A program made the position numbers and the translations under genes. From the NCBI GenBank assembly GCA_964016885.1, contig OZ024740.1:221836001-221900000 (forward strand): DNA of 64,000 nucleotides, written 5' to 3'. This stretch comes from Eledone cirrhosa (Eukaryota). The notes beneath the pieces are model-generated. The model did not search any database, had not been told where the DNA came from, and was given only the letters and a program-made list of their open reading frames with translations. Positions 2,021-62,940 of this stretch are shown here, one piece after another (within the stretch, counting starts at the first letter, position 1; each line of letters starts with the position of its first letter).

Positions 2021-2028
<8 letters not shown>

Positions 2029-2476
2029 GAAGCTTTCACCGTATTTTTTTGACTAAAGAAATTTTAGTCTGATAGTGAGGTTTAGAGCCCTCAGAGAAAT
2101 GGAAAATGATGAGTATTGACGTACATGGGAGTCGAACCCACATCTTTGGTTATCCAGACCACTATGCTACTAGTACACCAACACATCATCCATGTCCTTC
2201 CATTCAAATTAGAAGTTACATTCTTAGCAAGTATGATGACAAGTAAGAATGTTTTGAAACAGCGGCAAGTTTGAAATTAGAAAATAGAAGCTTTCACCGT
2301 ATTTTTTTGACTAAAGAAATTTTAGCCTGATAGTTGGGTTTAGAACCTTTTTTCCATTTCTCTGAGGGTTCTAAAACCCACTATCAGGCTAAAATTTCTT
2401 TAGTAAAAAAAATACCTTGAAAGCTTCTATTTTCTAATTTCAAACTTGTTCTCTGTTTCAAAACATACTTACTTGA
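2021..2476. mobile_element. Family C: ~260-bp tandem unit with a tRNA-like segment plus an inverted copy, inserted in (TA)n
   Basis: AAATAGAAGCTTTCACCGTA occurs at 2023 and 2282, and an inverted copy spans 2348-2476. Homologues are at 25478-25711 and 37579-37795. Confidence 0.8.
2118..2187 (-). ncRNA. tRNA-like (Pol III A/B-box) sequence inside the Family C repeat; not a canonical tRNA gene
   Basis: Minus strand reads GATGTGT TGGTGTACTAGTAGCAT AGTGGT CTGGATA ACCAAAGAT GTGGG TTCGACT CCCAT GTACGTC. It has an acceptor stem with several G-U pairs, an anticodon-like arm, and a T arm with B-box GGTTCGACTCC. Confidence 0.6.
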
Positions 2477-6806: not shown

Positions 6807-7377
6807 GTATATATACATTATATACATATATATATGTTTGTGTGTGTGTGTGCATTAAGCAGTCGCCGGATACGATGGGTGTGTGTGTATGCATAAATGT
6901 GTGTTTATATATATATATATATATATATATGTAGGAGGTGAGTTTTATTGTAGTACAATAAAGCAATGCAGATTCGGATAGGAAGCACTCTACAGTTTGT
7001 AGGACAGGAGTATACATAATATATAAGATCAAAAGATGGTTAAATGAGTTCCATGGAACACATTTAACCATCTTTTGATCTTATATATTATATATATATA
7101 TATATATTTCCCTGTAAATTGAAAATTAAAAGGTTAACTTATATATATATAAATATAAGTATGTATACATACATACATATATGTATACAGACGTACAGCA
7201 GTATGTATATGCAGACATACATGCACACATATTCATATATATATATATATATATGTACGTATGGGTTAACCGAACATTTATTATAATGTTCGGTTTGTTT
7301 GTAAACAAACAGCCAGAATTAAGCCGTACAGTGTTCGGCAACCATCGTTGCTTTTGTTCAACACTGACAAAGGAACG

Positions 7378-7414
7378 ATGAACTAGTTTCTAGCTTATTA
7401 GCTGTCATCAGCAC
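7378..7414 (-). ncRNA. Minimal type-I hammerhead ribozyme (Family B)
   Basis: Minus strand GTG-CTGATGA-CAGCTAATAAGCTA-GAAA-CTAG-TT-CAT: full core, stem I GUG/CAU, palindromic stem III ACUAGU. Confidence 0.8.
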
Positions 7415-8053
7415 TGTATACCTTCCTGTCAATCGATTGAACATCTGAAAGTATATACTTTCCTTATGCATATTAACGGCTGAGCAGCCTAATTTGCATA
7501 TCGAGCGAGTTAGTCGGCCGGGCGTACCAAAATCGATAAATGGAAAAAAGGAAATTTCATTTCTCACTCTTAGTACGGCTGATACTTAAATATGAGTATG
7601 TATACGTACATACATATATGTGTACAGACGCACAGTAGTATGTATATGTATACATGCATGCACACATATATATATGTACGTATGGGTTTACCGAACATTT
7701 ATTATAATGTTCGGTTTGTTTGTAAATATTTATTATAATGTTCTGTTTGTTTGTAAACAATTATAATAAATGTTCGGTAAACCCATACGTACATATATAT
7801 ATGTGTACATTTATGTGTGTATATACATACTACCTGACGTCTGTATACATATATGTATATACGTATACATACTTATATTTAAGTATCAGCCGTACTAAGA
7901 GTGAGAAATGAAATTTCATTTTTTCCATTTATCGATTTTGGTACGCCCGGCCGACTAACTCACTCGATATACAAATTAGGCTGATCAGCCGGTAATATGC
8001 ATAAGGGAAGTATATACTTTCAAACATTCAATCGATTGACAGGAAGGTATACA

Positions 8054-8090
8054 GTGCTGATGACAGCTAATAAGCTAGAAACTAGTTCAT
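8054..8090 (+). ncRNA. Minimal type-I hammerhead ribozyme (Family B)
   Basis: GTGCTGATGACAGCTAATAAGCTAGAAACTAGTTCAT, identical to the copy at 7378-7414. Confidence 0.8.
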
Positions 8091-8468
8091 CGTTCCTTTG
8101 TCAGTGTTGAACAAAAGGCAACGATGGTTTCCGAACACTGTACGGCTTAATTCGGGATGTACGTACATATATATATATATATATGTATATGTGTGCATGT
8201 ATGTGTGTATATACATACTGCTGTACGTCTGTATACATATATGTATGTACGTATACATACTTATATTTAAGTGTCAGCCGTACTAAGAGTGAGAAATGAA
8301 ATTTCATATTTTCTATATATATATATATATTTTAAAAAAATAGAGGTGTGACATATATATATATGTGTGTGTGTCTATATACGTTAATGTGTAATTCCCT
8401 CTCTGGGTTTGTGTGTATGACTAAATGTGTGTTTATACACACACACACACACACACACACCCACACAC

Positions 8469-10399: not shown

Positions 10400-10435
10400 G
10401 TAGTGTCTATATATACATATAAATATATATTTATA

Positions 10436-11204
<769 letters not shown>

Positions 11205-12110: not shown

Positions 12111-15100
12111 GGGGTAATGTGGAGCATAATAAGTCAATGTGAAAGAAAAAAATGTTATTTACAGGCATAGTTCTTGAAGATAAGCAGATCAAAATGTGTT
12201 AATATAGCAAGGGTGCTTAGTTGATCCATGATGGAGGCAAATGGTGGACTGGGGTTTGATATGATTTCCCTTTTTAGTTAATATGCAGGGGGAGGTAATT
12301 CATGCTGGATGATATTTAATTTATTTAAGAAAAAGGATTAGAGAGACATAGGTATTTGTAAATGTTTGATTGTTCGTTCTAGTTTTAGTTTAGACCGAAG
12401 TTTAGTGCATTAAGTAGAGGTTGCAATTTGTTAATGAAATACGTTTCCTTATTGGTACGATGGATGAAATTAGCGTTGTCTATGAATTTGTAAATGGGGA
12501 AAATTTTAAAGTTTCGATGTTGGTTGGGTGCACAATTGGCGATATGTTCACTAAATGCAATCTTTCTGTATTCCTGTATTTTGATTTGTGATTTATGGAC
12601 GGTCATACGTTGTCGGAGGCTGTTTTTTATCTGTCCTATGTAGTGCTCTTGACAACCTGAGCAGGTCAAAACATAGATTGGGTTTTCAGATGCACATGTA
12701 AAGTTGTGTTTAACTGTGAGATGTTGTCCTTGTTTAAAATGGGATGTTGAATCTTCTATTAGATTTATGCATATGCCACAGTTGGGCCTTCCACATTTTG
12801 TTACTGTAGGGTTCATTGTGAGGGTTTGTTGGATTTTGGCTTGCGTGAGGATGTTTTTTTATGGATTTAGGTTGTCTTTTGCTCTTCATGATGTTGTGTG
12901 TATGGAGGATTTTGTTCATTCTTGGGTCTCATTTTAGTAAAGAAATGTTCTGGAGGATGGTGTCGAATGCCTCATTGTTGAGGGGGTTCTGTGTAGAGAT
13001 GTATGGTAGAGTTTTCTGTGGCGGTTCATTCCTCTGTTTGGGGTGTCTCAGCTCCTGGATGTCGAGTTTTAGGGCTCGTTGGAATCCATTGTTGATTAGG
13101 GATGGTGGGTAGTTTCTGCTGATAAGTGTGTTTTTTAATTCTTCTAGTCGTGTGTAGCATGTGTATTTATCTGAAACTATTGCGCAGATCCTTCTGGCTA
13201 GGTTATAAGGAATTACCCTTTTGGTGTGTCTAGGGTGGCACGAGTTGAATGTAAGATATTGTTTGGAGTCTGTGGGTTTGTAGTATATGTCTGTTTTATA
13301 TTTTGGTGTCTGTTTTCTTGATGACGATGTCGAGGAAAGGGAGTTGTTCATGGCTGTAATCCATTGTGAATTGTAAGTTTGTGTTGAGTCCATTCAGAAG
13401 GGTTTTAAACTCAATCAGTCTATCTATACTTTCATGCCAGAGGATGAAGCAGTCGCCCAGATATCTCTTCCAGTTCTTTCTATGTGTTGGTAGAAGTGGT
13501 TGCCGTATTTGTCTAGAACTTTGCGGTAGAGAGTGGTTTCCAAATATCACATGACAAGGTTGGCGTATGAGGGGGCTACTTTCGTGCCCATGGCAGTCCC
13601 AGATTTCTGTCTGTAGTATTTGGCATTGAATTCGAAGAAATTGTTTTCCTAGATGAATTTGAGTCCCTCCAACACAAATTCTTTAGGTATGCGCTGTGGG
13701 AGTTCACTAGGGAAATTTTCAACCCAGAATTGTATTGCCTCTATACCTAGGTTGTGTGGGATATTGGAATATAAATTGATGACATCAAAGGTTACTATTA
13801 GGGTATGTTCATTATTGAGTGTTGTTGGGAGGTGGTTGAGCATGTCAAGCTCGTCCCTTGTGAAGCTTTTTATGTGTTTTAGGAAAGGTTTAAGCAGAAT
13901 ATCTAGGAAGTTGCTTAGGCGGTTGGTTTCACATGTGGTACTTGCTATTATGGGTCTTAATTTAAGGTCATTAGGAGGGGCTATATTGATGTAAATGTCT
14001 GTGGCTTGCTTGCAGGCCCTACCTATTACTTCGCTTTTGTGTGTCTTTGGGATACCGTAGAAAAGGATGGTTCTGCTTTTGAAATTGGTGATGTAGTTGT
14101 ATTCCTGTCTGTAAGGCCTTCTTTGTAAAGGGTTGTTAGGGATTTTAGGTTTCTCATTATTTTCTGTTGTGTGTATTGTTGGGCCTTTTCATATGTTTGG
14201 TTTTCTAGAGTTGAGAGTACTAGAGTCGTGTAATAATCTGACTCCATAAGGACTACTGCACTCCCTTTATCTGCCTCTTTGGTCGTTAGGGTTTTGTCGT
14301 TTTTTAGACTGTTAAGACCATTCCATTCTTTTTTGCTTAGGTTTTGTTTTTGTTTATGTCTGTGTAGGTAGTGGTATGGGTAATTAGTAATGTGTTCGCA
14401 GAATTGATCGAGGAATTTGTTCTTGCCTTTTGTTGGGGTGTAGTTGTTTCTATTTCTGGCTAATGAGTCATCCTCATTGTATTTGTCGTATAGTTGCTCG
14501 CTGAGTCTTAGTTTTCTACAGAATTCTGCAATATCTTCCTTCATTTTGGGGTAGTTTGGTTGTTGGGGTGTTGGTGTAAATTTTAGACCTTTGGAGAGTA
14601 TGTTGATTTGGTCTGTTGTTAATTCTTTACAGGTTAAATTAACACTTTTTATTACATTTTGTCTCCTGTGTGTATTGTGTTATCTTGTTATCCTGTGTCT
14701 GTGTGCTGTGTCTAAAAAATGATTACGGAAGTTGTGGTGGCTGTTGAAGTTTGGATGTCTCTTATGGTTGTATTGAGCCCTGTTGTTGTTAGATGGTGTG
14801 TAGCTGTGGTGGTTGTTGAAGTTAGGTTGTATCGTGTGGTTGTATTGAGCCCTGCTGATGTTGTAGGGTGTGTAGATATGATGGACGTGGTTATAGGGTG
14901 TGAAGTTGTGGTGGCTGTTGAAGTTGGGTTGTATCGTATGGTTGTACTGAGTACTGCAGTTGTTGTAGGGTGTGTAGACTTGGTGGTAGTTGTAGTAGTG
15001 TTGTCTTGTGTGGTTATATTGAGTCCTGCTGTTATATGGTGTGTAGCTATGGTGGCTGTAGTGGTTAGGGTGTCTCGTGTGGTTGTATTGTCCCCTGCTT

Positions 15101-16417: not shown

Positions 16418-16637
16418 ATATTTATTAAAATAACAGATTAAAGTTTAAGCAAAGAATCGCTGCTTTCACCCTTAACGGGATCTTCAGAAGATCCCGTTAA
16501 GGGTGAAAGCAGCGATTCTTTGCTTAAACTTTAATCTGTTATTTTAATAAATATTTGCTTTACGGTTCTTATATATTTGATATATATTTATCCTTATCGA
16601 GCCCTCTTTGGATTTTAGTCTTCAATTTTATTATTAT

Positions 16638-16640
<3 letters not shown>
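16418..16640. mobile_element. Family D: perfect ~137-bp palindrome centred on a hammerhead core, plus a unique 3' tail, in (TA)n
   Basis: Centre ...GGGATCTTC-A-GAAGATCCC... at 16486. The minus strand reads CTGAAGA-TCCCGTTAAGGGT-GAAA-GC. Homologues are at 19338-19542 and 45936-45987. Confidence 0.8.
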
Positions 16641-16694
<54 letters not shown>

Positions 16695-16734
16695 AGTATA
16701 TATATATATATATAAATATATATATATATATGTC

Positions 16735-17830
16735 ATTCTGGTTACAATCAGAGGGAGAAAATCAGAGTATATAGAGGAGCCAGAAGCAAATGGGAAAACA
16801 TGGTAAATAATGACACAAATGGGACCTGTCCCTTGAATAGGAGCAAATTTTGGAATAGAATAGAAAGAACTAGGAATAAGGTTAATAGAATAAACTCATG
16901 GTATGATAGCAATAAATATCAGAGTGTAATGTTCATCGATACAACCCCTAGAGGTGGATTAGCTTACAAATTTAGAAGGGCCCTAGATAAACATAAACTC
17001 AATATTAAGATAGTAGAAATACCAGGTTCCTCCATAAAAACACTTATTAGCAATACATACCTTTTTCAAAGACCTCCCTGTATAGATAAGAAATGTATAA
17101 TCTGTAAACTAAGCCCCCATATTAACTGTAAAACTAGAAATGTAGTATATAGCATAAGATGTACGGAAGGACAATGTAGAGATAAGAATATAGTGTACAT
17201 AGGTGAGACAGAACGTAGTATAGGGGAACGGATAAATGAACACTGGCGAGAGCTTCAAGATAGTAAAGAATCATCTGTACTCCACCAACATGCTAAAATA
17301 GAACATAAGGATAAATTAGAGAACAGAAATAAAAAATAGAATCTATACACAGAAAAGACGCAATGTTTAGACAAATCACAGAGGCAATAAACATAAATGA
17401 ACTCCAACCAAAATTAAATAGAAAACATGAATGGAACAGCAATATCACAACTTACAATTAAGGAAAAATGAAAACATACACACACACACACAGAACAAAC
17501 AACCAACCAGTAACATAGTAACATGTAAATAAACAAATAAATAAACAAATATAAACACACACAGACACCCGGATGTACACATGTGCAAACTAAGCACACA
17601 ACACACATACAAACAAGAGGGCGTAGGACAGAACAAAGGAGAGGCACAAAAACAAAGAAAATAATCCCCAGTCACTGAAGAAGTCATAGAATGTGTGACG
17701 AAAGAACTTTGACAATATATGAACAATCGTCTGGTTGTGGAATCAACCAGCCAACCGGAAATTTACAAATTCCTAAATTTATAATAAATTGAAGTGAAAG
17801 CAACTGGTGCGTGTGTTCCTTACAAATATA
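16735..17830 (+). mobile_element. 5'-truncated Penelope-like element (GIY-YIG end plus 3' repeat)
   Basis: ORF 16800..17339: C..C.IC...CKTRNVVYSIRC...YIGETERSIGERINEH. An HHR follows downstream. Confidence 0.9.
17671..17713 (+). ncRNA. Minimal type-I hammerhead ribozyme
   Basis: GTCA-CTGAAGA-A-GTCATA GAATG TGTGAC-GAAA-GAAC-TT-TGAC: 4-bp stem I, 6-bp stem II, short stem III. Confidence 0.8.
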
Positions 17831-19059: not shown

Positions 19060-19258
19060 ATAACGAAGGAAGTGTGGTAAGGAACCAGATGGACCATAAC
19101 GCACCAGAGTACTCAATACTTAGGGTAGTAGAGTGGGTAATAGGAAAATGTATAACCCCGACGACAGAGCTCAAACCGTTTCGATGGCTATTTCTGGACT
19201 ATTCCAGAAATAGACGTCGAAACGGCTTGACCTCTGCCGTCGGGGTTATACATTTTCC

Positions 19259-19262
<4 letters not shown>
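19060..19262. mobile_element. Family A relative: fold-back of a hammerhead 3' half in (TA)n
   Basis: Palindrome 19141-19260. The right arm reads GAAA-CGGC TTGACCTCT GCCG-TC-GGGG. Confidence 0.65.
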
Positions 19263-19337
<75 letters not shown>

Positions 19338-19344
<7 letters not shown>

Positions 19345-19539
19345 TAACAGATTAAAGTTTAAGCAAAGAATCGCTGCTTTCACTCTTAACGGGATCTTCT
19401 AAGGGTGAAAGCAGCGATTCTTTGCTTAAACTTTAATCTGTTATTTTAATAAATATTTGCTCTACGGTTCTTATATATTTGATATATATTTATCCTTATC
19501 TAGCCCTCTTTGGATTTTAGTCTTCAAATTTATTATTAT

Positions 19540-19542
<3 letters not shown>
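19338..19542. mobile_element. Family D copy 2 (asymmetric fold-back)
   Basis: Near-identical to 16424-16640. The left arm ends at GGGATCTTC and the right arm starts at TAAGGGTGAAAGC. Confidence 0.85.
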
Positions 19543-19583
<41 letters not shown>

Positions 19584-21900: not shown

Positions 21901-22887
21901 CACACACACTCCATCATCAATATTTAAAAAAATGTATATCATACAAAAAACGCCAACATCAACAGTTTTCCAAGAGTGGGCAACATGAATGGATCTGTTA
22001 TTTTTCTATAAAAAAATAATTTCTGTTTCCGCCCTGCCCGTCTCAACAATCTTTCTATTTCTTCTTTAATTTCTCATTCTTTCTTCTGCAGGAAGATAGT
22101 CTCAACGTCTGAAACCTTGAGACTCTCTTCTTGCAATTTCAAGCGTTAAACTAATATATTCCTTACATGTACTGTGCCGCCTGTTATTTTTGTTATTTTT
22201 GTTTACCTTTTACGTGTTGTGTATAAGTATAGGGGGTAGAGGGTCGAAGATGGTAGTAGAACTTGTTAGTAGCTGGTAGTGCTGGGTATGTATGTATAGG
22301 GGACACGGAGCGAAGGTAGATGGCCGGTGAGGTGGAGTTGGATAGGGGTTAATGGTGTTAATGGTGGGTGATAGGTACGTTAGTTAGTTAGTGCTGTTGA
22401 TAGGGTTAAAAGAGAGTCATATAGGTGTAACATGTAAACTGTTAGCGTGTGGGTATGTTGTAAGAGAGTTGGAGCGTGTGTTAGTGTGCGTATGTGTGTA
22501 TGTGACCTTTTTCTAGTGTTTCTATATATGTGAGTGTGTACGTTTATGTGTGTGTGTGGTGATACAGGGGTGAAAGTGACGGTGACGGGGTGGGACTTTG
22601 GTTATGTGTGTGTGGGTGGTAATTTAGGGAAGTGAGGTGGTAGAGTAGTGTTAATGGTGGATTAGGGTGGCCCGATAGTTGATTAGTTGGTGCCGTTAGT
22701 GGGGTAAAATAAGGGGGTCGTATGGGGGTAACTGGTGTAGGTTGTGTTGGTGAGTCTGTGTGAGGAAGAGAGTTGGGACATTTAGACCGCTTCTGGTGCA
22801 GGTACGGAGAAAAAATATTGTGCGCTGCTTATGTTTCAGGCGTGTCTCAGGGGTACATATAGAGACATCAGGGCAACAAGAAGCTGA

Positions 22888-23168
22888 CCATCGATCGCGG
22901 TAGTAGCGACGGGCGGTATGTGCAAAGGGCAGGGACGTGATCGACGCGGGTTGGTTCCAGGCCCCGATCACTATCACGGGAGGTGGGTCAGAGGTTTCCC
23001 GACCCTCTCGGGCCAGGAGAGTGGCGCCCACTGATACCTCCAGTGTAGCGTGCGTGCGGCCCCGGACATCTAAGGGCATCACAGACCTGTTATCGCTCCG
23101 CCTCGTGCGACTTTCTGCCTCCCGTCCCTCTAAGAAGCGCTGCGTTCGCCAACCCACTGGCCCGGCGC
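22888..23168 (-). pseudogene. 18S rRNA fragment (3' region) with an internal deletion; non-functional
   Basis: Reverse complements of universal 18S blocks GTAGTAGCGACGGGCGGT.TGT.CAAAGGGCAGGGACG and GCGGCCCCGGACATCTAAGGGCATCACAGACCTGTTAT, plus GTCCCTCTAAGAAG. Confidence 0.9.
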
Positions 23169-25300
23169 AACGTTCCACAGCAGGTCTCGATGAACATGGC
23201 CATATGCCTTTTCATGGTCGAGAAAACAAAAATATATATCTTGGCAATACTCCCACGATTTCTTGAAGACCTGCTGCAGTGTAAATATGTGGACAGCTGT
23301 ACTGCGTCCGGGGCGAAATCCGCACTTTTCACCAGCTAGCTTGGACACGACGTTCTCCCTGCATCTCTTTGCCAGACACTAGCAAAGACTTTACCTGGGA
23401 GGCTTAACAAAGAGATCTGTAATTGGAACAATCTCTCTTGTCTCCCTTTTTGAAAATTGGGATTATCACTCCCGATTGCCATTGCCTTTCCAGAGATCCA
23501 GGTCACCACACACACATCAGTCAACCAGAGAACACCATCTCTATTTAAGGGTTTTAACAACTCGGGCCGGATTTCATCTTCCCAAGCAGCCTTGCCATAT
23601 TTGAGGTCTTTAACTGTTCTTGTGATATCAGCCTTCGAGAGAATAATCACCACACCCATATGCATGTCTTGTACATCAGAAGATGCTGCTGTGATCAGTT
23701 TTAGGATATTAGCAAATTATTCTCTTCACCTCGCGAGGACTCACCTGTCTGAATAGAGGAGAACCCAGGTTAGTTCCTGATATCAGGTGTGGAAGAAGGC
23801 TTCTTACTACGAAGTCGGTGAATGGTCTGCCAGAACACTTTATTTGCTGATATGAAGTCGGATTCTAGCTTAACCCCAATGTCCTCCCATGTCTTAACTT
23901 TGGGCATCTTTACTGTCTCTTCTGCTTGTACCGAAAGTGAAAGAAGTAGGACGCATTTCCATCTGGCGCCACACCAAGCTTCTTTTGCCCGCAGCATCTG
24001 ACAGCCGAAGCAGAAACTACTGAGATGAATAATCTCCACTCTATTTCAACGTTCTTAGTTTGCTCAGGGATATCTCTAAAATTGGATGCAATAATATCTG
24101 CATATCTAGTCCTGACCTCCTTATCCACCAACGCTTCTCACTTTATCCTGTAGATCGGCCTGGACCTGCCAGTTTTGTGGGCTTCTTTGATTTTAGCGAG
24201 TCTCAAGTTGCAGATAACTAGATGGTGATCAGTTGACAGCTCAGCCCTTCTCATAACACGAACAACCAGCAGGGAATTGAAGAGATCAGAGACAATAACA
24301 AAATCAATTACTGATTTCTGTCCCCGATTCCTCTGATACCATTATATTTCTGTACTGGAAGAATGTGTTCATAATAGAGAGTTCATTGCTAGAACAGAAG
24401 TATAATAAGGCCTCTTCATTCGTATTTAGATCGGGGTCAATATTCCTTCCGATCACTCCTTTCCATGTTAGGTGGACAGTGCTACCACGCGCATCAGGAT
24501 ATATCACTCAGTCTTAACTACATTTAACGCTGCAGTGATTTCATCAAGGAAGGGACATGTATTTGGACTCCGTGTTTAGTGCATAAACTTGTACCATCCA
24601 CAGAGACCTAACTGTCAGCCTAAGCTTCAAGAAGCAAATCCTCCCTCTTAATGTGATCCAGTCCATAACACATTCTGGCAGCCGGGGTCTTGTGAGTAAC
24701 ACAACTCCAGCATGTGCCTCCTCTAATAGTTCTTGCTTCTTACCTGTGATGGTTGTAATGTTTCAGTTTTCAATTGTGAAGGATTGCTCTATTCCGGAGC
24801 CTTTTTGTGGTTGTCTCCGGATACGCAATCTTTGTGCGTCCATTCCACGCGTCCCAGACCAGGTCACCAGTTTTTGCGTCATGAAATGGGGACTGCAATA
24901 TACTTTTCAAATAGACACCTCTACTTAAGGCCTGAACGGTCCTTTATTAATCCGCGCGAAGGACGATGTCGTGTGGCTCTTTTTTGTTCCTCTCCCCATA
25001 TTGCAGTTTCAGTGGTCTTATTTCTGCTGGTCACCAATCTCGTACTTCCAATCCCGCGAAGACTAAGCTTTTTTAGAGGTGGCCTTTATTGCCTCTTCAT
25101 AGCTTCGTCACTTGATTGTGAGAGGTTTCCTGGGAGCTACTGGTGTCACCCATGCCCCCCCCCCCCCTAGCAGTTTATCGCTGTTGGTCCGGGGTTGCTT
25201 ATTTATTCGACAGCTGCCCTCTTAAACCGCAACTAACCACCATATCTGGTAGCCGTATCGTTATCCACCACTTGCGACCCGTTCACTAGCAGAACAGCTC
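23169..25300 (-). mobile_element. RTE-clade LINE, decayed (5' UTR, APE, start of RT), truncated at the 3' side
   Basis: ELSIMNTFF, LSTDHHLV, LKYGKAAWEDEIRPELLK, ISLLSLPGKVFA, CGFRPGRSTAVHIFTLQQ...CFLD.EKAY..V.R..LW. Confidence 0.9.
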
Positions 25301-25349: not shown

Positions 25350-25711
<362 letters not shown>

Positions 25712-31375: not shown

Positions 31376-34300
31376 ATGCCTCGACGAGGAAGAAAGAAAA
31401 CATCTGGTTGGTCTATCGATAGTGGAAAGAAAGCACGGCTAAGGAGTGCCGAAGAAGGTGAGCAAGATAGTGGTCAACGCCAACAAGATCGGGACAGGCA
31501 TGCGAACAGAAGGATCGATGCGACTGATAAAGCAAGGGCTGCGCGTCCGGCGGAACAGAGGGAAAGAGACAGAAGCAGGAGATATCATGAATCGGATGGT
31601 CGGAGAGCTGCGCGACTGGCGGAACAGAGATAAAGGGGCAGAAGAAGGAGAGATCATGAATCGGATGGTCGGAGAGCTGCGCGACTGGCGGAACAGAGGG
31701 AAAGGGGCAGAAGAAGGAGAGATCATGAATCGGACGCTCGGAGAGCTGAGCGTCAGGCGGAACAGAAGGAAAGAGACAGAAGAAGGAGAGATCATGAATC
31801 GGATGGTCGGAGAGCTGAGCGTCTGGCGGAACAGAGGGAAAGAGACAGAAGCAGGAGAGATCATGAATCGGATGGTCGGAGAGCTGAGCGTCTGGCGGAA
31901 CAGAGGGAAAGAGACAGAAGCAGGAGAGATCATGAATCGTATGGTCGGAGAGCTGAGCATCTGGCGGAACAGAGGGAAAGAAACAGAAGAAGGAGACATC
32001 ATGAATCGGTCGCTCGGAGAACTGACCGTCTTTGCCAACAAACCATTAGGGATAGAGCAAGGACAGTTCAACGACGTGACCTCTCTGCTGGTGTTGGACA
32101 GATGAATAAGATCTGTGTCTCTTGTCATGCAATGCTTTTTCATGGTGAAACTGCTAACTTTTGCTGTATGAATGGAAAAGTCAGGCTGGGGAATCTGCAG
32201 CCTTTACCCCAGGAACTTCAGAGTTTATTTAGTACTGATCAACCTAGGGCAAACGAGTTCAGGAAGAACCTCAGACAATACAACTGCCTGTTCCAAATGG
32301 CATCTTTTGGGGCCGGAGAATTTCGTTCCTCAAGGAGTGGATGGAATCCTTCTATCGTTATTAATGGTCAAATTCACCATTACATCGGTTCCTTAACCCC
32401 TAATCCCAACGAACAACCCAATTTCTTCAAATTTACTTCTTGGATCCTCAGGATAGTGTTGATTTGAGGATCAGGATACTCCATAACGATGGCATTCAGC
32501 TTGACATAGTTGAATTATTGGAAATAATACTCAGACAATATAACCCTTACGTTGCTTCATTTCGAATGGCAAAAGAACAAATTAAAAATATTCTCGAAGC
32601 TTTGATTATTATTGATCCTGATAGGAGACCAGCAATGGAACATGAGAGAAGATTCAATGCACAAACTGCAAACGAAGTTGCCGTTATTATACAAAACAGC
32701 ACCGAACTTCAAGCAAAAGCACGGCACATTGTGTTGAAAGAAAAAGGCGGATAATTGCAGATAATCTCAGAGTCCCATCGGTCCTATGACAGTTTGCAGT
32801 ATGTTCTATTTTTTCCTTTTGGCGATGACGGATGGCATCATGAGCTGTTAATGAGCAACAACAATAAGTTGACGCCAATGCGCTACTATGCCTATCGAAT
32901 AATGAACCATGAGAATGAATTCAACCAACTTCTCAGAGGCGGTCGTTTATTTCAGCAATATTTGGTTGACATGGCTGCGAATATTGAAGGAGATAATCTG
33001 CAATGCATCCGAATGAATCAAACATCATTGCGATCTACAACATACAAGGGCCTTACTGACGCATTGAATGATGATGACGATTTTCGCAATATTGGCAGGC
33101 GAATCATACTCTCTTCCACATTTGTCGGTGGACCGAGATATATGATGGAGCGATGCCAGGATGCCATGATGTACATACGGAAGTACGGCAATCCTTCGTT
33201 CTTCATCACAATGACATGCAATCCAAACTGGCCTGAAATCCGGCAAAACCTATTCCTGAATCAAAAGCCACATGACAGGCCAGATTTAATTGCCAGAGTA
33301 TTTGACCTGAAGCGGAAACTGTTAAGAAAGTATCTTACTGGAGTAGATGGCCTATTTGGCAAGTGCATTGCTTACGTGCTGACAGTCGAATATCAAAAGT
33401 GAGGTCTTCCTCATGTGCACTGTTTGCTATGGCTCAATGAAGCCTCCAAGCCCAGACCGCAGGAATATGATAAATTTGTTCAAGTCGAAATACCAGATCC
33501 AAACAAAGATCCAGAGGGTCATGAATTGGTGCTGAAGCACATGATCCACAGTCCGAATTGCTCTAACAATTCACCGTGTTGGAAAGATGGAACGTGCAGT
33601 AAGCGGTACCGTAAGCCTTTCAATGAATATACATTGTGTGGAAAGGACTCTTATCCTGTGTACAGAAGACGGTCTCCAGGAATGGGAGGATTTGAGGGGC
33701 ACCAAGAAGGAAGGGGAAGCCGAAATATAACTTCGGAATGGGTGGTTCCCTACAATATGAAACTATTAAAACTGTTCAACTGCCACCTAAACGTAAAGAT
33801 GTGCTCTTCCGTGAAATCGATCAAATATGTTATCAAATATACCATGAAGGGCAGTGATCAGGCAATGTTTGGAGTGAACAGGGAAGATGAGATAATACAG
33901 TATTTAACAGGAAGATATATCGGTCTTTCAGAAGCTGTTGCTTTGGTACTTGTATTTCCAATTCATGAGAGAGAACCGGCCGTAGTTCGCCTTCAAGTTC
34001 ATCTACCCGAGGAAAATCAAATCTTCTTTCGGGTCAATGCTGCTGTTAAAGTAAACAATAACATGGCTAAGACGACTCTGACTGAGATCATGGGTCTTTG
34101 CGATCGCGATCCGTTTCCAAAAACATTGTATTATGCCGATGTCCCAAAGTTTTACACTTGGAGTAATAAGAGATGGGAAAGGAGAAAGGTGGGGAAAACA
34201 GTTGAGCAGTAACCGGGGATTTTTGAGGCGACCGTTTTGGGAGGAGTATACACTGTTTCTCCACGAAGTGGTGACCTGTATTATTTGAGACTCCTTCTGC

Positions 34301-36122
34301 ATCACGTCAAAGGGCCAGTATCCTTCAACTCTTTGAAAATGTGTGATGGAGAACTCCTGCCATTATTCAAAGAGAAAGGTTTGCTTCAATCGGATGATCA
34401 TTAGCAGCAGACTCTGGAAGATGTTGAGCGAACAAGGCTTCCCAAAGCCATGAGAGATCTATTCATCGTAATCCTCACAAATACGGAAATTGACAATTCC
34501 AGTGCTTTATGGATTCGATTGAAGCATTCGCTGTCTGTGGATTACCTTCAAATAGAAAAAAGGGCTACCAGAAACTCTAACCTTTTGATTAGCGAGAGAC
34601 ATTATGATCAATGTCTTCTGTATTTTGAAGACAAACTTAACGACCTGGGCAAAAGTCTTAGTGACTTTAACTTGCCAAGGCCAAATAATATTATAGCTAA
34701 TCAGGATATTGGCAATTTGGAGTTATTGCATGAATTGCAATACACCAGAGAAGAGTAGCGACGATTTGTAGAAGAGACGGCGCCTCTATTGAATAGTGAA
34801 CAAAAACACGTGTACGACTTCGTTTGTAACTGTTTAGAGACGAACACATCTGCATTGATTTTCATTGACGCTCCAGGTGGAACAGGAAAGACATTCCTGA
34901 TTAACTTAATTCTTTCAAAAGTCAGGGGAAACGGCGACGTGGCAATTGCTGTTGCGTCATCTGGCATTGCCGCGGCACTTATGCCTGGTGGAAGAACAGC
35001 GCATTCTAGGTTCAAAATACCGATAGTAGTGAAAGAAAATGGTCTGTGTAACATTGATAAAATCTCAAAGACGGCAAACCTCTTCTAGCATACAAGGCTG
35101 ATTGTTTGGGATGAGTGTCCTATGATTCGGAGGGAAAGCTTCGAAGCTGTTGACCTCACTCTGCGTGACATAATGAGGCATTCGGTAGAATTTTGACAAT
35201 TTGCTGTGGCGATTTCCGTCAGCTTCTTCCGGTAGTGAAAAGGGGAAATGAAGCGGACGTGGAAAACGCCTGCATTAAAAAATCCTACTTATGGCGAAGC
35301 TTCAAAAGATTTCAGTTGTAGAAAAACATGCGATTGGGTGGGGGAGCAGGAGACTATTCACACTTCCTATTGGAAAAGATAGATAAAAAAACTGAAAATG
35401 AGGAAATTATTTTGCCAAAAGAAATGGTTCTCCAAGCAACAACTATGGAAGAATGTATTGATTTCATCTACCCCTCATTCGACAATCCAGCTGAAGTGTT
35501 TTCGAACAATTGCATCTTAGTACCTCTCAATCAAATGATGAGAAGCATCAATTCCACCTGTATCAGACGCTTCCCTGGAACCATAAAAGAGTAACGATCC
35601 TATAATTCTCTGAGTGATGGTGCCAATGCCACTCATTTCCCGACTGAATTCCTTGATTCGGTTGAACTATCAGGACTGCCTCCATATAACCTGGAATTGA
35701 AAAAAGGATCGCCAATAATTCTTATGAGAAACTTGAATCCTCCAAGGATTTGTAATGGAACGCGCATGATCGTGAAAGAACTGCACGACAATCTCATAGT
35801 AGCAAGAATCAACACTGCTGCTTTCAGAAATGAGATCGGTATGATACCTAGAATAAGAATTAATCTATCCGAAGGTGAGGATATCCCTTTGCAGCGAAGC
35901 CAATTCCCAGTTCAATGGTACTTTGCTATGACTATTCATAAAGCACAAGGACAAACTATGGAAAACGTCTTGGTTTATCTGGAACGACCTGTATTCCAAC
36001 ACGGTCAACTGTATGTAGCCCTTAGCCGCGGAAAACGAAAAGAAAATGTCAGAGTGTTTCTGAAGGATACCCAGTCAACTAAGAAGGTTGTCATCAAAAG
36101 CATTCTTTTGAACAAACTGTAA
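31376..36122 (+). pseudogene. Helitron RepHel transposase (Zn-finger, HUH Rep, Pif1 helicase), interrupted by stops and frameshifts
   Basis: C..C.A..F.GE...CC.NG, FFITMTCNPNWPEI, VEYQK*GLPHVHCLLW (HUH), KYVIKY..KG (Y2), DAPGGTGKT (Walker A), FAMTIHKAQGQT, HGQLYVALSR. Confidence 0.95.
31540..32035 (+). repeat. 60-bp tandem repeat (~8 copies) in the RepHel N-terminus
   Basis: Recurrent GGAACAGAGGGAAAGAGACAGAAG.AGGAGAGATCATGAATCGGATGGTCGGAGAGCTG, encoding an Arg/Glu-rich 20-mer. Confidence 0.9.
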
Positions 36123-37578: not shown

Positions 37579-37795
37579 TGTAAGAATATTTTCGAAACAG
37601 CGAGTGGGTTTGAAATTATTAGAAATGTAAGCTATCGTCGTATTTTGACTAAAGAAATTAAAGAAATTATTTAGCCTGATAGTGGGGTTAAGAACCCTCG
37701 GAGAAATGGAAAAAGATGAGTATTGACTGCAATCCCCTTGACTTCTTTGTGTGGGGCGCAGTGGAATGAGACACCAACAGGCTAAATAATTTCTT
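37579..37795. mobile_element. Family C copy in (TA)n
   Basis: GACTAAAGAAAT...TAGCCTGATAGTGGGGTT.AGAACCCTC.GAGAAATGGAAAAAGATGAGTATTGAC with a short inverted tail. Confidence 0.75.
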
Positions 37796-37804
37796 ATATA
37801 TATA

Positions 37805-38968
37805 TACAATAAAAAGAAATACACAGATACATGCGAATACATACATATACATGCATATACACACATATATCCCTGAATTTGTGTGGTGCCAACCTTAACC
37901 GTTGTTGCTCTTTGATTAACAGGGCAAAATAATCTGAATGAATTAGATTGACTCAATATCAGAGCTATATAATACATTATAAAGAAAGAAGAACCATTAG
38001 ACATAAACAAAAAAATATATATACCCAGTATTCTTCAACTTCCTCGACCGCGCAGTTTCGTGGCTACTATACATTACATCATAGAGATGCAGTATTTTTG
38101 TGAGGTTTGCCCACTTGTCAAGAGTATACCTCATTAAAGTTTCAAAACACGTCCGCAAGGCGTGAGAGAGAATCCCGGAAAGGCGGAGGGGGAACTTATC
38201 ACGTGATACAGCGGTCAAGAAACAGAGTTAAGCCTCTTACAACCAAGAGAAAAATACCACAAATGGCGGAGGGGGTACTAAAAAAATATATATACCCAAT
38301 ATTATGTTGAAGAATAATGGGTATATATATTTTTTTTCTTTATGTCTAATGTTTCTTCTTTCTTTATAATATATTATATAGCTCTGATATTGAGCCAATC
38401 TAATTCATTCAGATTATTTTGTCGCTATTAATCATAGAGCAACAACGGTTAAGGTTGGCACCACACAAATTCAGGGATATATGTGTGTATATGCATGTAT
38501 ATGTATGTATTCGCATGTATCTGTGTATTTCTTTTTATTGTCTATAACTCCCGACGGTAGAGTAACCACAGAAGTATAGTGACTGCAGTCAAGCTTACAC
38601 TATTTACACTTCTAGCCCTCCTTAGCCACTTCCTCTGTAGCCGAGATGTTAATACCCCCTCCGCCATTTGTGGTATTTTTCTCTTGGTTGTAAGAGGCTT
38701 AACTCTGTTTCTTGACCGCTGTATCACGTGATAAGTTCCCCCTCCGCCTTTCCGGGATTCTCTCTCACGCCTTGCGGACGTGTTTTGAAACTTTAATGAG
38801 GTAGTCTCTTGATAAGTTGGCAAACCTCACAAAAATACTGCATCTCCATGATATAATATTTTTGCATAGTAGCCACGAAACTGCGCAGTCGAGGAAGTTG
38901 AGAAATATTGGGTATATATATATTTTTTATTTATGTCTAATGTTTCTTCTTTCTTTATAATGTATTAC
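37805..38968. mobile_element. Family F: ~590-bp non-coding unit with terminal redundancy and an inverted copy (A-B | A'-C'-B'-A')
   Basis: 37805-38040 is inverted at 38307-38541 and partly at 38897-38968. 38041-38278 is inverted at 38651-38900. GAAA-CTGCGCAG-TC-GAG (half HHR) is at ~38877. Confidence 0.8.
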
Positions 38969-38992
38969 ATATATATATATATATATATATAT

Positions 38993-39350
<358 letters not shown>

Positions 39351-45900: not shown

Positions 45901-45935
<35 letters not shown>

Positions 45936-45985
45936 TTTATTAAAATAACAGATTAAAGTTTAAGCAAAGAATCGCTGCTTTCACC

Positions 45986-46978: not shown

Positions 46979-47036
46979 TATAAATAAAATAAAATGACAG
47001 GAGGCTGGACTGGTGTAAATCCTTGAAAGGTTTATT

Positions 47037-47094
47037 ATACTATGATCATTTCAATGACCGGGTTCCATATGAATCCGGTGATATCATCAGGTAT
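47037..47094 (-). ncRNA. Type-I hammerhead ribozyme (Family E)
   Basis: Minus strand ATAC-CTGATGA-TATCACCGGATTCATATGGAACCCGGTCATT-GAAA-TGATCA-TA-GTAT. Confidence 0.85.
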
Positions 47095-49000
47095 TGGAAT
47101 ATAATAAAGGAATATGTAAAAAACCATGGGTCCGAAAAATCAGAGACAGAGACAAAGAGGACGACTGACCAACTAGCTGCCTTTATCTCGGCCAGTCGCC
47201 CTCAAAGTGGTGGCAACTGAATCAACTAATGAATATCTGGTGAGTGGGCGAAGGCTTATAATGCACTACCACCTCTCCGTTAAAGAAAAAGGGGAAGAAA
47301 GAAAGAAAGGGAGAAATAAGTCAGCGTAAGGGTCACACTACATTCATGATAGAAAATGCCGCGAAAAAATGCTACTCCAAAGAATCTATAATAGGTGTCT
47401 GTATGTCTAATGTGTGAACCGAAGACAGGAACGTTAAACTTATGTTGCGAGTTATAGGATGAAATTAAATTAAATTAAAAATATTAAATTGCAAAATGAT
47501 AAATTGAAAAATAAGTTATTAGAAAATTAAAGGTTAAGGTAGCGAGATTTATTTAATGAACTTACGGAGAGAGTCTTATATGAAAAAATTTATCTCGATA
47601 AGAAATTAGGATGGGATATAGAGTAAAGATTTCGATTGGGAATCCCAGCCAGCGCCCCCAACCATGAGTCAGCCAGCTTCGAGTGGTATCGTCCATCGAA
47701 AGAAATGGAAATTAATTTTTCCGAGTACTCTAGGAACGTAGCCACCTTAGGCGCCGGGAGCGCCAGCGGGAACTCCACAATTTCGACAGGCCATCGTCTA
47801 TACCAAACGAATATTATTAAATCACACATGAGGGGGTTTATTTACGTGCCAGTAGAGGCATGATACAGCTAATAGTTATGCCTAAACCTGGAGTTTATAG
47901 GTATAAGTATAATATGGCGGCCAAAACACGCGGCGCTGTGCGACCGGGCAAAGCAATCCGCTCCGAGTAATTTCGTTTAGCGAAAGAGGAGAAATTTATT
48001 TTTCCGAGCACTCAAGGAAGGCTGAACTTTCCGAGTGCCCAGCGCGCAGCCGAGAAAAGCCACCAGACAAGTCGAAAGTAGCAACCCAATGAAAAGTGCA
48101 AATAGACCAAAATTATTTTAAAGTCCCAGTTAGTCCGGGTTATAAGTAGTGTGGTTGTTAGGTGGATTGGGTGCTATGAAAGGTGCATAATGACCTGAGT
48201 AAGGAAAGTTACAAAAAAATAATAAAAGCAGGATACAAAGATACATTACAAATATAAAGATAGAATACATTTATAAAAATACATTAATAAAATAATAAAA
48301 AAATAAAAAAATATACATTAATGAAATAATAACAAAATTAATAAAGGTAAATAACTAGGGATGTAGAAAGACGGAAGTATATAAGAACGTATCGGAGGGA
48401 TCACAGTGTAGGGGAAATACAATATAGATCAAGTTGTAGTAAGATCATACAGGTTGTACATATAGATATAGAGGATGAAGGAGATGGAATGGTAACAGGT
48501 TGTACCTAGTGTAAAGTTCGGGTCACCGAATTCAGTGTGAGTCACAAAAAGTCCTGAGGTATAGAGTAGAGAATTCAGTCAATACAATACATGTTTTAGT
48601 ATAATACGTAGAGTTTTGTCGGAATCGGAATCATCCCGACAAGGAAGTAGTATCAGGTGGCGGTAGATAAAGCACAGAGCAGCCAAAATCCGAATGGTAA
48701 GTAGATCAGTTAATCCCATGCTGACAATAGCTGTACACTGAAGTCAATGCCGCTGTTCAATATTACATTTTGAAGTGCTCAACATTATTAGAGCATTATT
48801 TCTTTAGGTTTGTTGGTTCACCACTGGATAGAACTGGTCATTCTGTATGGTCAATCCTGGTGTAATATTGTGAAGAGTACTCAACGCAGTGCAGTTGATC
48901 CATCTTCGTTTGTGTAGTAGGTGGTGCGAATACGGAGTTAATTATAAATAAAATAAAATGACAGGAGGCTGGACTGGTGTAAATCCTTGAAAGGTTTATT

Positions 49001-49058
49001 ATACTATGATCATTTCAATGACCGGGTTCCATATGAATCCGGTGATATCATCAGGTAT
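49001..49058 (-). ncRNA. Type-I hammerhead ribozyme (Family E)
   Basis: Identical to 47037-47094. Confidence 0.85.
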
Positions 49059-49784
49059 TGGAATATAACAAAGGAATATGTAAAAAACCATGGGTCCGAA
49101 AAATCAGAGACAGAGACAAAGAGGACGACAGACCAACTAGCTGCCTTTATCTCGGCCAGTCGCCCTCAAAGTGGTGGCAACTGAATCTACTAATGAACAT
49201 CTGGTGAGGGGGCGAAGGCTTATAATGCACTACCACCTCTCCGTTAAAGAAAAAGGGGAAGAAGGAAAGAAAGGGAGAAAGAAGTCAGCGTAAGGGTCAC
49301 ACTACATTCATGCTAGAAAAAGCCGCGAAAAAATGCTACTCCAAAGAATCTATAATTGGTCTCTGTATGGTCTAATGTGTGAACCGAAGATTGGAACGTT
49401 AAACTTATGTTGCGAGTTATAGGATGGAATTAAATTAAATTAAAAATATTAAATTGAAAAATGATAAATTGAAAAATAAGTTATTAGAAAATTAAAGGTT
49501 AAGGTAGCGAGATTTATTTAATGAACTTACGGAGAGAGTCTTATATGAAGAAAAAAAAAAAGAAAAAAAAAAAATATACATATATATATATATATAAATC
49601 AATAATAATGAGTTCAAATCTCAGGCGATCATTTACAATGAAATAGCTCGAAGAAAGAGTATTTCTGAGCGGTGTAATATAGGTTTATATAAATCAATAT
49701 ATTTGATAAACACAAATACCCTCATATTTATGTTTGTATTGTAAATGACCAAGTTAGCTAGATAGAAATATACTAATAATAATT

Positions 49785-50720
<936 letters not shown>

Positions 50721-59524: not shown

Positions 59525-62940
<3,416 letters not shown>

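Follow-up and report, generated by a model that had tools for sequence, protein, structure and literature searches.

The window analysed here, a 64-kb stretch of AT-rich, microsatellite-dense animal DNA, perhaps octopus-like to judge by a common SINE in it, holds three loci of one repeat family (2024–2476, 25479–25710 and 37580–37795, referred to below as loci 1, 2 and 3). The element is a 258-bp repeat, dispersed and non-coding, that carries a tRNA-gene-like cassette in its interior and has no hammerhead core. Its period, originally put at about 260 bp, was measured from an identical 17-mer that begins at 2024 and again at 2282. Locus 1 runs from a (TA)n tract through a 324-nt minus arm and a 129-nt inverted plus arm to a second (TA)n tract, with only 1.25 units (2024–2347) ahead of the inverted arm (2348–2476). 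The features of the family loci are listed below.

1998–2023, no strand: (TA)n target tract, left side
2024–2347, minus: long arm of 324 nt, or 1.25 units; its 3′ end at 2024 is a 'short' end
2024–2281, minus: single 258-bp unit
2032–2037, minus: GAAAGC motif, about 10 nt ahead of the short end and similar to a hammerhead core's 3′ half
2051–2069, minus: hairpin 2 (predicted fold)
2069–2094, minus: hairpin 1 (predicted fold); inner 5 bp firm, CUGA:UCAG extension weak (pair probability about 0.2)
2097–2114, minus: 3′ trailer, other strand of a predicted 18-bp helix, spanning the T run
2103–2107, minus: T run 10–14 nt past the discriminator, T4 in the locus 1 copy and T5 in the family majority
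2117–2187, minus: tRNA-like cloverleaf (Rfam) with a non-canonical anticodon loop and U at position 37
2128–2138, minus: B box (GGTTCGACTCC), from the sequence and the Rfam alignment
2170–2180, minus: A box (motifs as in PMC10886601); with the majority letters at 2171 and 2173 the D loop regains its GG and A
2188–2205, minus: 5′ flank, one strand of the predicted 18-bp helix with 2097–2114 (majority letters)
2218–2252, minus: predicted body hairpin whose 5′ arm contains the long-end site; one pair is lost with the majority letter at 2248
2259–2300, minus: predicted junction helix, 2294–2300 with 2259–2264, enclosing the short-end site
2282–2347, minus: 66-bp terminal redundancy, a partial preceding unit, pLTR-like, with 94% identity to 2024–2089
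2348–2476, plus: inverted 5′-truncated arm; its 40–44 nt tail is 2433–2476 and its 3′ end is a 'long' end
2477–2493, no strand: (TA)n target tract, right side
25479–25710: locus 2, an inverted pair with one long and one short end and a small fold-back insert, without the full tRNA
37580–37795: locus 3, a minus arm with a long end, about 50 nt of foreign filler, and an 18-nt inverted arm ending at (TA)n

Inverted pairs are present at all three loci, and the full tRNA module at one of the three (locus 1). The sequence GGTGAAAGCT is intact at loci 1 and 2, with one arm of each altered, and has diverged at locus 3. Two hairpins had been proposed as conserved at the three loci. Their pairing is retained in 95% of 80 cells across six aligned window segments, and falls to 23–56% when the alignment of these segments is slid as a control, but no two-sided changes were found among the six, which are too few for covariation.

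Arm geometry and fixed ends at (TA)n tracts

The inversion and TA targeting claimed in the original prediction were borne out: all six outer 3′ ends, from three independent loci, adjoin (TA)n, against a background of 5.5% of the window lying within 3 nt of such a tract. The ends use two fixed positions 40–44 nt apart. Two arms have short ends, directly after the GAAAGC motif, and three have long ends 40–44 nt further on; the sixth outer end is the 18-nt remnant at locus 3, which terminates within hairpin 2. On passing from the short-end bin into the proximal tail, depth in public contigs drops by roughly half (121,726 to 63,678 in X1 and 3,217 to 2,034 in X4).

According to excerpts of PMC8557442, the marks shown by Penelope-like elements (PLEs) comprise a partial tandem, an inverted 5′-truncated copy, a tail of 30–40 bp at one end and a bias for (TA)n. 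Because the inversion, TA targeting, partial tandem and 40–44 nt tail observed here match these marks, the locus geometry supports PLE-type mobilisation, as had been proposed, and we consider it highly probable that the repeat is a non-autonomous element mobilised by PLE machinery. Hammerhead-bearing inverted families in the window have their sense 3′ ends pointing outward; under the same geometry, the tRNA-sense strand is therefore the RNA strand.

Two of the loci contain inserted sequence. At locus 2, a small fold-back insertion (25508–25545) sits at the junction of short end and tail. The filler of about 50 nt between the arms of locus 3 (37726–37778, plus) translates as DCNPLDFFVWGAVE*DTNR, which we take to be Tc1/mariner transposase-like, and is joined through a 3-nt microhomology that suggests a template switch. 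Nested inverted repeats of 93–95% identity lie nearby between TA tracts (37801–38971).

We surveyed the family in four of the nine listed public runs (X2, X3, X5, X6 and X9 were left out). Matching contigs numbered 3,471 in X1 (organism A) and 811 in X4 (organism B), and two RAD runs of organism A gave 2,693 and 2,343 matching reads; this is a high-copy family under two organism labels. Of the tandem unit originally claimed, what stands is a partial tandem, with a 66-bp terminal redundancy at one of the three loci; no array was found. The 258-bp period is seen over 1.25 units, a stretch that no matching read or contig of the four runs covers whole. The head-to-tail junction also occurs outside locus 1, since X1 and X4 contain contigs that run through tail, body and tRNA. 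Scans with patterns of 22–27 nt gave no matches in metagenomes (0 and 0) or viral sequences (0 and 0); the matches in prokaryote genomes (1 and 1) shared only the 22–27 nt pattern and were treated as chance.

The tRNA-like cassette and its flanks

The cassette scored 41.3 bits against RF00005 (gathering threshold 29), the sole gathering-level Rfam match in the 64 kb. ARAGORN found no tRNA genes in the window; with this result, U at position 37 and three G-U pairs in the acceptor stem, a functional tRNA gene was rejected as a reading. For the isotype, the best phage match, tRNA-Trp at E = 9, was not significant. Anticodon loop and acceptor stem are degenerate, with acceptor pair probabilities of 0.02–0.50. 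In each of the four runs the majority sequence retains the A and B boxes, and with family-majority letters the D stem and the GG of the D loop are complete again. A run of five T residues is a Pol III stop signal. One is present after the tRNA in 98, 64, 90 and 87% of depth across the four data sets, and also at loci 2 and 3.

The unit had been described as tRNA-headed. A tRNA-like module is indeed present at 2117–2187 on the minus strand, but it is internal, because depth stays level from the D arm into the 5′ flank and body (26,634, 21,116 and 19,706 in X1; 1,047, 869 and 1,268 in X4), with no step at the 5′ end of the tRNA (2187); these depths are sums over contigs, distorted by the locus 1 copy's own differences, and give a rough truncation profile. 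D-arm depth is about a tenth of hairpin and trailer depth in X1 and X4, and by public contig depth most copies are 3′ fragments. The tRNA is thus literally absent from most copies, which the original prediction had counted as an argument against itself; 5′ truncation explains the absence, because copies that pass the tRNA mostly run on upstream.

Together with T5 after the tRNA in 64–98% of depth, the missing depth step weakens the idea of a tRNA-headed SINE. It is highly unlikely that the family is an ordinary tRNA SINE that depends on LINEs, or a palindromic element at the DNA level, and that its inversions are secondary. For such an origin speak the tRNA-derived segment with its A and B boxes, the dominance of SINEs in octopus repeat annotations and the fact that no partner element was identified. 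However, neither a poly-A or simple own tail nor a TSD was seen, and the ends lie directly at (TA)n in two fixed positions. The tRNA lies off the 5′ boundary, the reads continue from the unit into upstream sequence, and the upstream flank is conserved. Moreover, all three loci are inverted, and their arms are unequal 5′-truncated pieces, not terminal inverted repeats. Canonical tRNA SINEs (SINE2) likewise have tRNA-derived A and B boxes; here, in contrast, the tRNA does not form the 5′ head, a LINE-derived tail was not seen and a T5 is internal.

With family-majority letters, the 5′ flank and the 3′ trailer of the cassette are predicted to pair over 18 bp with probabilities of 0.58–0.99. None of 5,000 flank shuffles reached 18 bp, and the opposite strand gives 7 bp; the locus 1 copy has 10 contiguous bp, a length reached by 161 of 5,000 shuffles. 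Its mismatches at 2107, 2189 and 2194 are each mended by the majority letter, and common variants at 2196 and 2197 change G-U to A-U. The predicted helix extends the acceptor stem and reaches 6 bp past T5, and therefore needs an RNA begun upstream of the tRNA and continued past the stop signal. The RNA that is copied is probably a long read-through transcript.

Among the variable positions listed, 14 of 18 variants at paired sites keep or restore the pair, compared with 4.7 expected (7.6 with transition bias). This tally uses 29 of 40 listed positions, out of 137, with eleven (2335 and above) excluded because in the second or inverted copy they duplicate positions of the unit, and the helix registers were picked after the variants had been seen; the opposite strand gives a nearly equal 13 of 18, and many variants are decay of the locus 1 copy alone. 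G-U exceeds A-C among the variants by 12 to 0, an excess that is partly circular and for which A-to-I editing could be another source.

The fold of the whole unit is marginal (z −2.0 for the locus 1 copy, −1.5 with majority letters), and a test for global stabilisation was negative, 27 of 150 random edit sets stabilising the unit equally. For the junction helix we observed one anecdotal two-sided change. An alternative rod fold, dominant in the locus 1 copy, was rejected at a probability of at most 0.18 with majority letters. Folded as a circle, the unit is predicted to form the same closed domains.

Given PLE mobilisation, a promoter role for the cassette seems to us more probable than not. 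The combination of kept A and B boxes with a degenerate anticodon loop and acceptor is the promoter-retention pattern as read in Helenus (excerpts of PMC10886601), and the promoter of Sm-alpha is described as driving the following unit (PMC6765202, in part). Against such read-through, a two-unit RNA would have to pass more than one T run, and T5 is a full stop for human Pol III in vitro, although it is leaky in human cells (excerpts of PMC3141230). The strong T5 directly past the tRNA favours a passenger tRNA instead: the element would be PLE-mobilised with the tRNA as captured cargo or a protective fold, its template would be a Pol II read-through RNA, and a Pol III transcript ending at T5 would be irrelevant. 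The flank helix, which needs RNA from both sides of the cassette, also agrees with this, as do reports, in the excerpted texts, that retrozymes are thought to use read-through transcription (PMC7761336) and that PLEs are able to copy host genes in trans (PMC8557442). The promoter-retention pattern argues against a passenger tRNA, which we consider unlikely.

Search for a ribozyme and for a nuclease cut

As originally stated, the family has no canonical hammerhead: CUGANGA is absent from all five scanned arms on both strands, with four of four controls positive. This is not in itself unusual, because Naiad and most Chlamys PLEs also lack a canonical hammerhead (PMC8557442, excerpts).

A further suggestion had been that CUGA and GAAA elements around a branched helix form a variant self-cleaving ribozyme. 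Together with the short palindrome after it, GAAAGC looks like the 3′ half of a Hydra-clade hammerhead, and it is missing from the 40 variable positions listed of 137. However, CUGA is polymorphic at the subfamily level and changed in 27–84% of depth in each run: within the pair of positions 2362 and 2363, the C is altered in 84% of depth in X4 and in 34% of RAD reads, and the U in 27% of depth in X1 and in 41–43% of RAD reads. The predicted fold places CUGA within or next to a hairpin and has the GA of GAAAGC paired in the junction helix; neither stem I nor stem II closes, and no hammerhead 5′ half matching GAAAGC was found in the scanned arms. At loci 1 and 2 no Rfam ribozyme family matched at E values up to 10, a weak negative since a control hammerhead-like motif was missed too. 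A variant ribozyme is thus extremely unlikely, and GAAAGC may be a relic of a hammerhead 3′ half, akin to the 'half core' described in some Naiads.

Several other repeats in the window carry related motifs. One TA-embedded family (7150–8300, 10435–10900 and 39002–39219) has a hammerhead-like motif (CUGAUGA at 8057 plus, 7411 minus and 10736 minus) with a palindromic stem III and was missed by Rfam. A second (16418–16640, 19332–19543 and 45935–45985) ends at two fixed positions and shows a hammerhead-like motif at 16487 minus. At 365–622 and 19126–19284, next to (TA)n, are related inverted elements with a GAAAC motif and no CUGANGA in the pieces present; the first of the two lies within a palindrome (12–927, 85% over about 900 bp). 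A 611-bp direct repeat (46979–47588 and 48943–49553, 97% identity) with CUGAUGA on the minus strand in each copy resembles a pLTR pair.

The missing hammerhead leaves room for a cut by a host nuclease, and release of monomers by RNase P/Z had been proposed. The tRNA fold would then stand in for a ribozyme: RNase P/Z or an anticodon-loop nuclease would cut the multimer once per unit, the 18-bp leader–trailer helix would clamp the permuted halves, and the PLE enzyme would copy the ligated circle; elements so built would form a ribozyme-free, retrozyme-like class. At locus 1 the copy exceeds one unit, the unit is predicted to fold into the same closed domains as a circle, and the steepest fall in depth lies across the anticodon and D arms. 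In retrozymes the tRNA ligase RtcB circularises the RNA (PMC7229834, excerpts).

The 5′ ends lie within about 25 nt of the tRNA 3′ end in four of the five main arms. Two of these, at loci 2 and 3, take in 4–7 nt of the acceptor strand, nucleotides that would be missing after a cut by RNase Z, and two begin at or just past the T run; read joints in public data cluster at 2122–2127. Stalling in a long helix fits this distribution better than an RNase Z cut. The 3′ ends fall about 50–55 and 95 nt short of the following tRNA, upstream of the start at which RNase P would cut, and long leader–trailer pairing hinders RNase P. The fall in depth is partly artefact, reads clipped at 2170 and 2185 carrying on in family sequence. 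These ends weaken the proposal of RNase P/Z release, and we regard once-per-unit nuclease cutting as improbable.

Mobilisation of the repeat and related systems

Sequence recognisable as PLE coding remnants (GIY-YIG and RT) is present inside the window. The GIY-YIG domain lies at 12388–12858 and the RT at 62075–62800, in two decayed coding copies (12385–14700 and 61039–62925, both minus) that are 76% identical over 1.9 kb and ordered RT then GIY-YIG. A PLE 3′ remnant (16716–17830) has a weak GIY-YIG match followed by a hammerhead-like motif at 17675, and an ORF remnant at 49950–50700 without a Pfam match looks by eye like the Hydra-clade PLE linker in the excerpted supplement of PMC8557442. 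A comparison of two window ORFs found nothing. The window also holds what is left of a Helitron, with Rep and Pif1 helicase sequence and a coding minisatellite of 69 bp (31400–36120). A GC-richer stretch at about 22700–23200, without a gathering-level rRNA match in Rfam, has a translation that suggests a small-subunit rDNA fragment.

No autonomous PLE with the same 3′ end was matched in the window. Searching the Naiad, Chlamys and Hydra consensi of PMC8557442, as far as excerpted, with two motifs gave 0 matches, and comparison by eye with the ends of Naiad_Obim, Naiad_Ovul and Hydra-1_Obim in that source revealed no likeness.

The reading we prefer, with odds that we place marginally above even, is a non-autonomous parasite without a ribozyme that is copied by a PLE enzyme and whose tRNA cassette is a leaky Pol III promoter for the next unit. 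A Penelope-like reverse transcriptase-endonuclease would copy the repeat in trans from an RNA longer than one unit, launched into the next unit by the cassette of the preceding one. Priming at nicked (TA)n on both strands would give two outward-pointing arms. The enzyme would usually stall in the helix of about 25 bp formed by flank and acceptor, leaving mostly short 3′ fragments, and rare longer copies such as locus 1 would rebuild a partial tandem that could be transcribed again. The RNA would require neither self-cleavage nor RNase P/Z.

So read, the 258-bp repeat works like several known systems and belongs to none of them. The schistosome SINE-like elements Sm-alpha and Sj-alpha (PMC6765202, PMC2770079; excerpts) share with it a tRNA-derived Pol III promoter in a tandem unit that drives the next unit. 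In Sm-alpha a tRNA-Gln-derived promoter is combined with tandem units and a hammerhead (same excerpts). The schistosome hammerhead is active, whereas here none was found, the tRNA is followed by a T5 and the insertions show an explicit PLE-type geometry. Animal non-LTR retrozymes (PMC7229834 and bioRxiv 10.64898/2026.07.22.740005, in part) are likewise short non-coding tandem units (170–400 nt) with structured RNA, proposed as non-autonomous PLE partners, but they are defined by a type I hammerhead per unit and by circRNA, and the excerpts report no tRNA module; here a hammerhead is found in none of five arms.

Naiad, Hydra-clade PLEs and non-autonomous Chlamys elements such as MRC1 (PMC8557442) have the same partial tandem, inverted 5′-truncated copy, one-sided tail of 30–40 bp and (TA)n bias; the 258-bp repeat differs in having no ORF, and no common 3′ end was found. 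Both the Naiad and Hydra clades are listed for Octopus in the excerpts of that paper, and 'tRNA' occurs 0 times in its supplement text as excerpted. The TRIMp3 elements Helenus, Ajax and Cassandra (PMC10886601, excerpts) carry a small-RNA-gene promoter (tRNA or 5S) inside the terminal repeat of a non-autonomous retroelement. They are of LTR type, with PBS, PPT and TSDs of 4–5 bp, and the 258-bp repeat would be their PLE-type counterpart.

We found no description of a tRNA-bearing, hammerhead-free PLE parasite in the literature searched, which did not take in Repbase, Dfam or most subscription journals. LINEs and, as described recently, LTR elements (TRIMp3; excerpts of PMC10886601) have SINE-like parasites with small-RNA promoters, and the 258-bp family would be their PLE counterpart. 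It would also be a short substrate for asking which features of a template a PLE enzyme recognises, and whether hammerheads have a part in PLE copying, a role left open in the excerpts of PMC8557442. Repeat annotations probably list families of this kind wrongly as tRNA SINEs.
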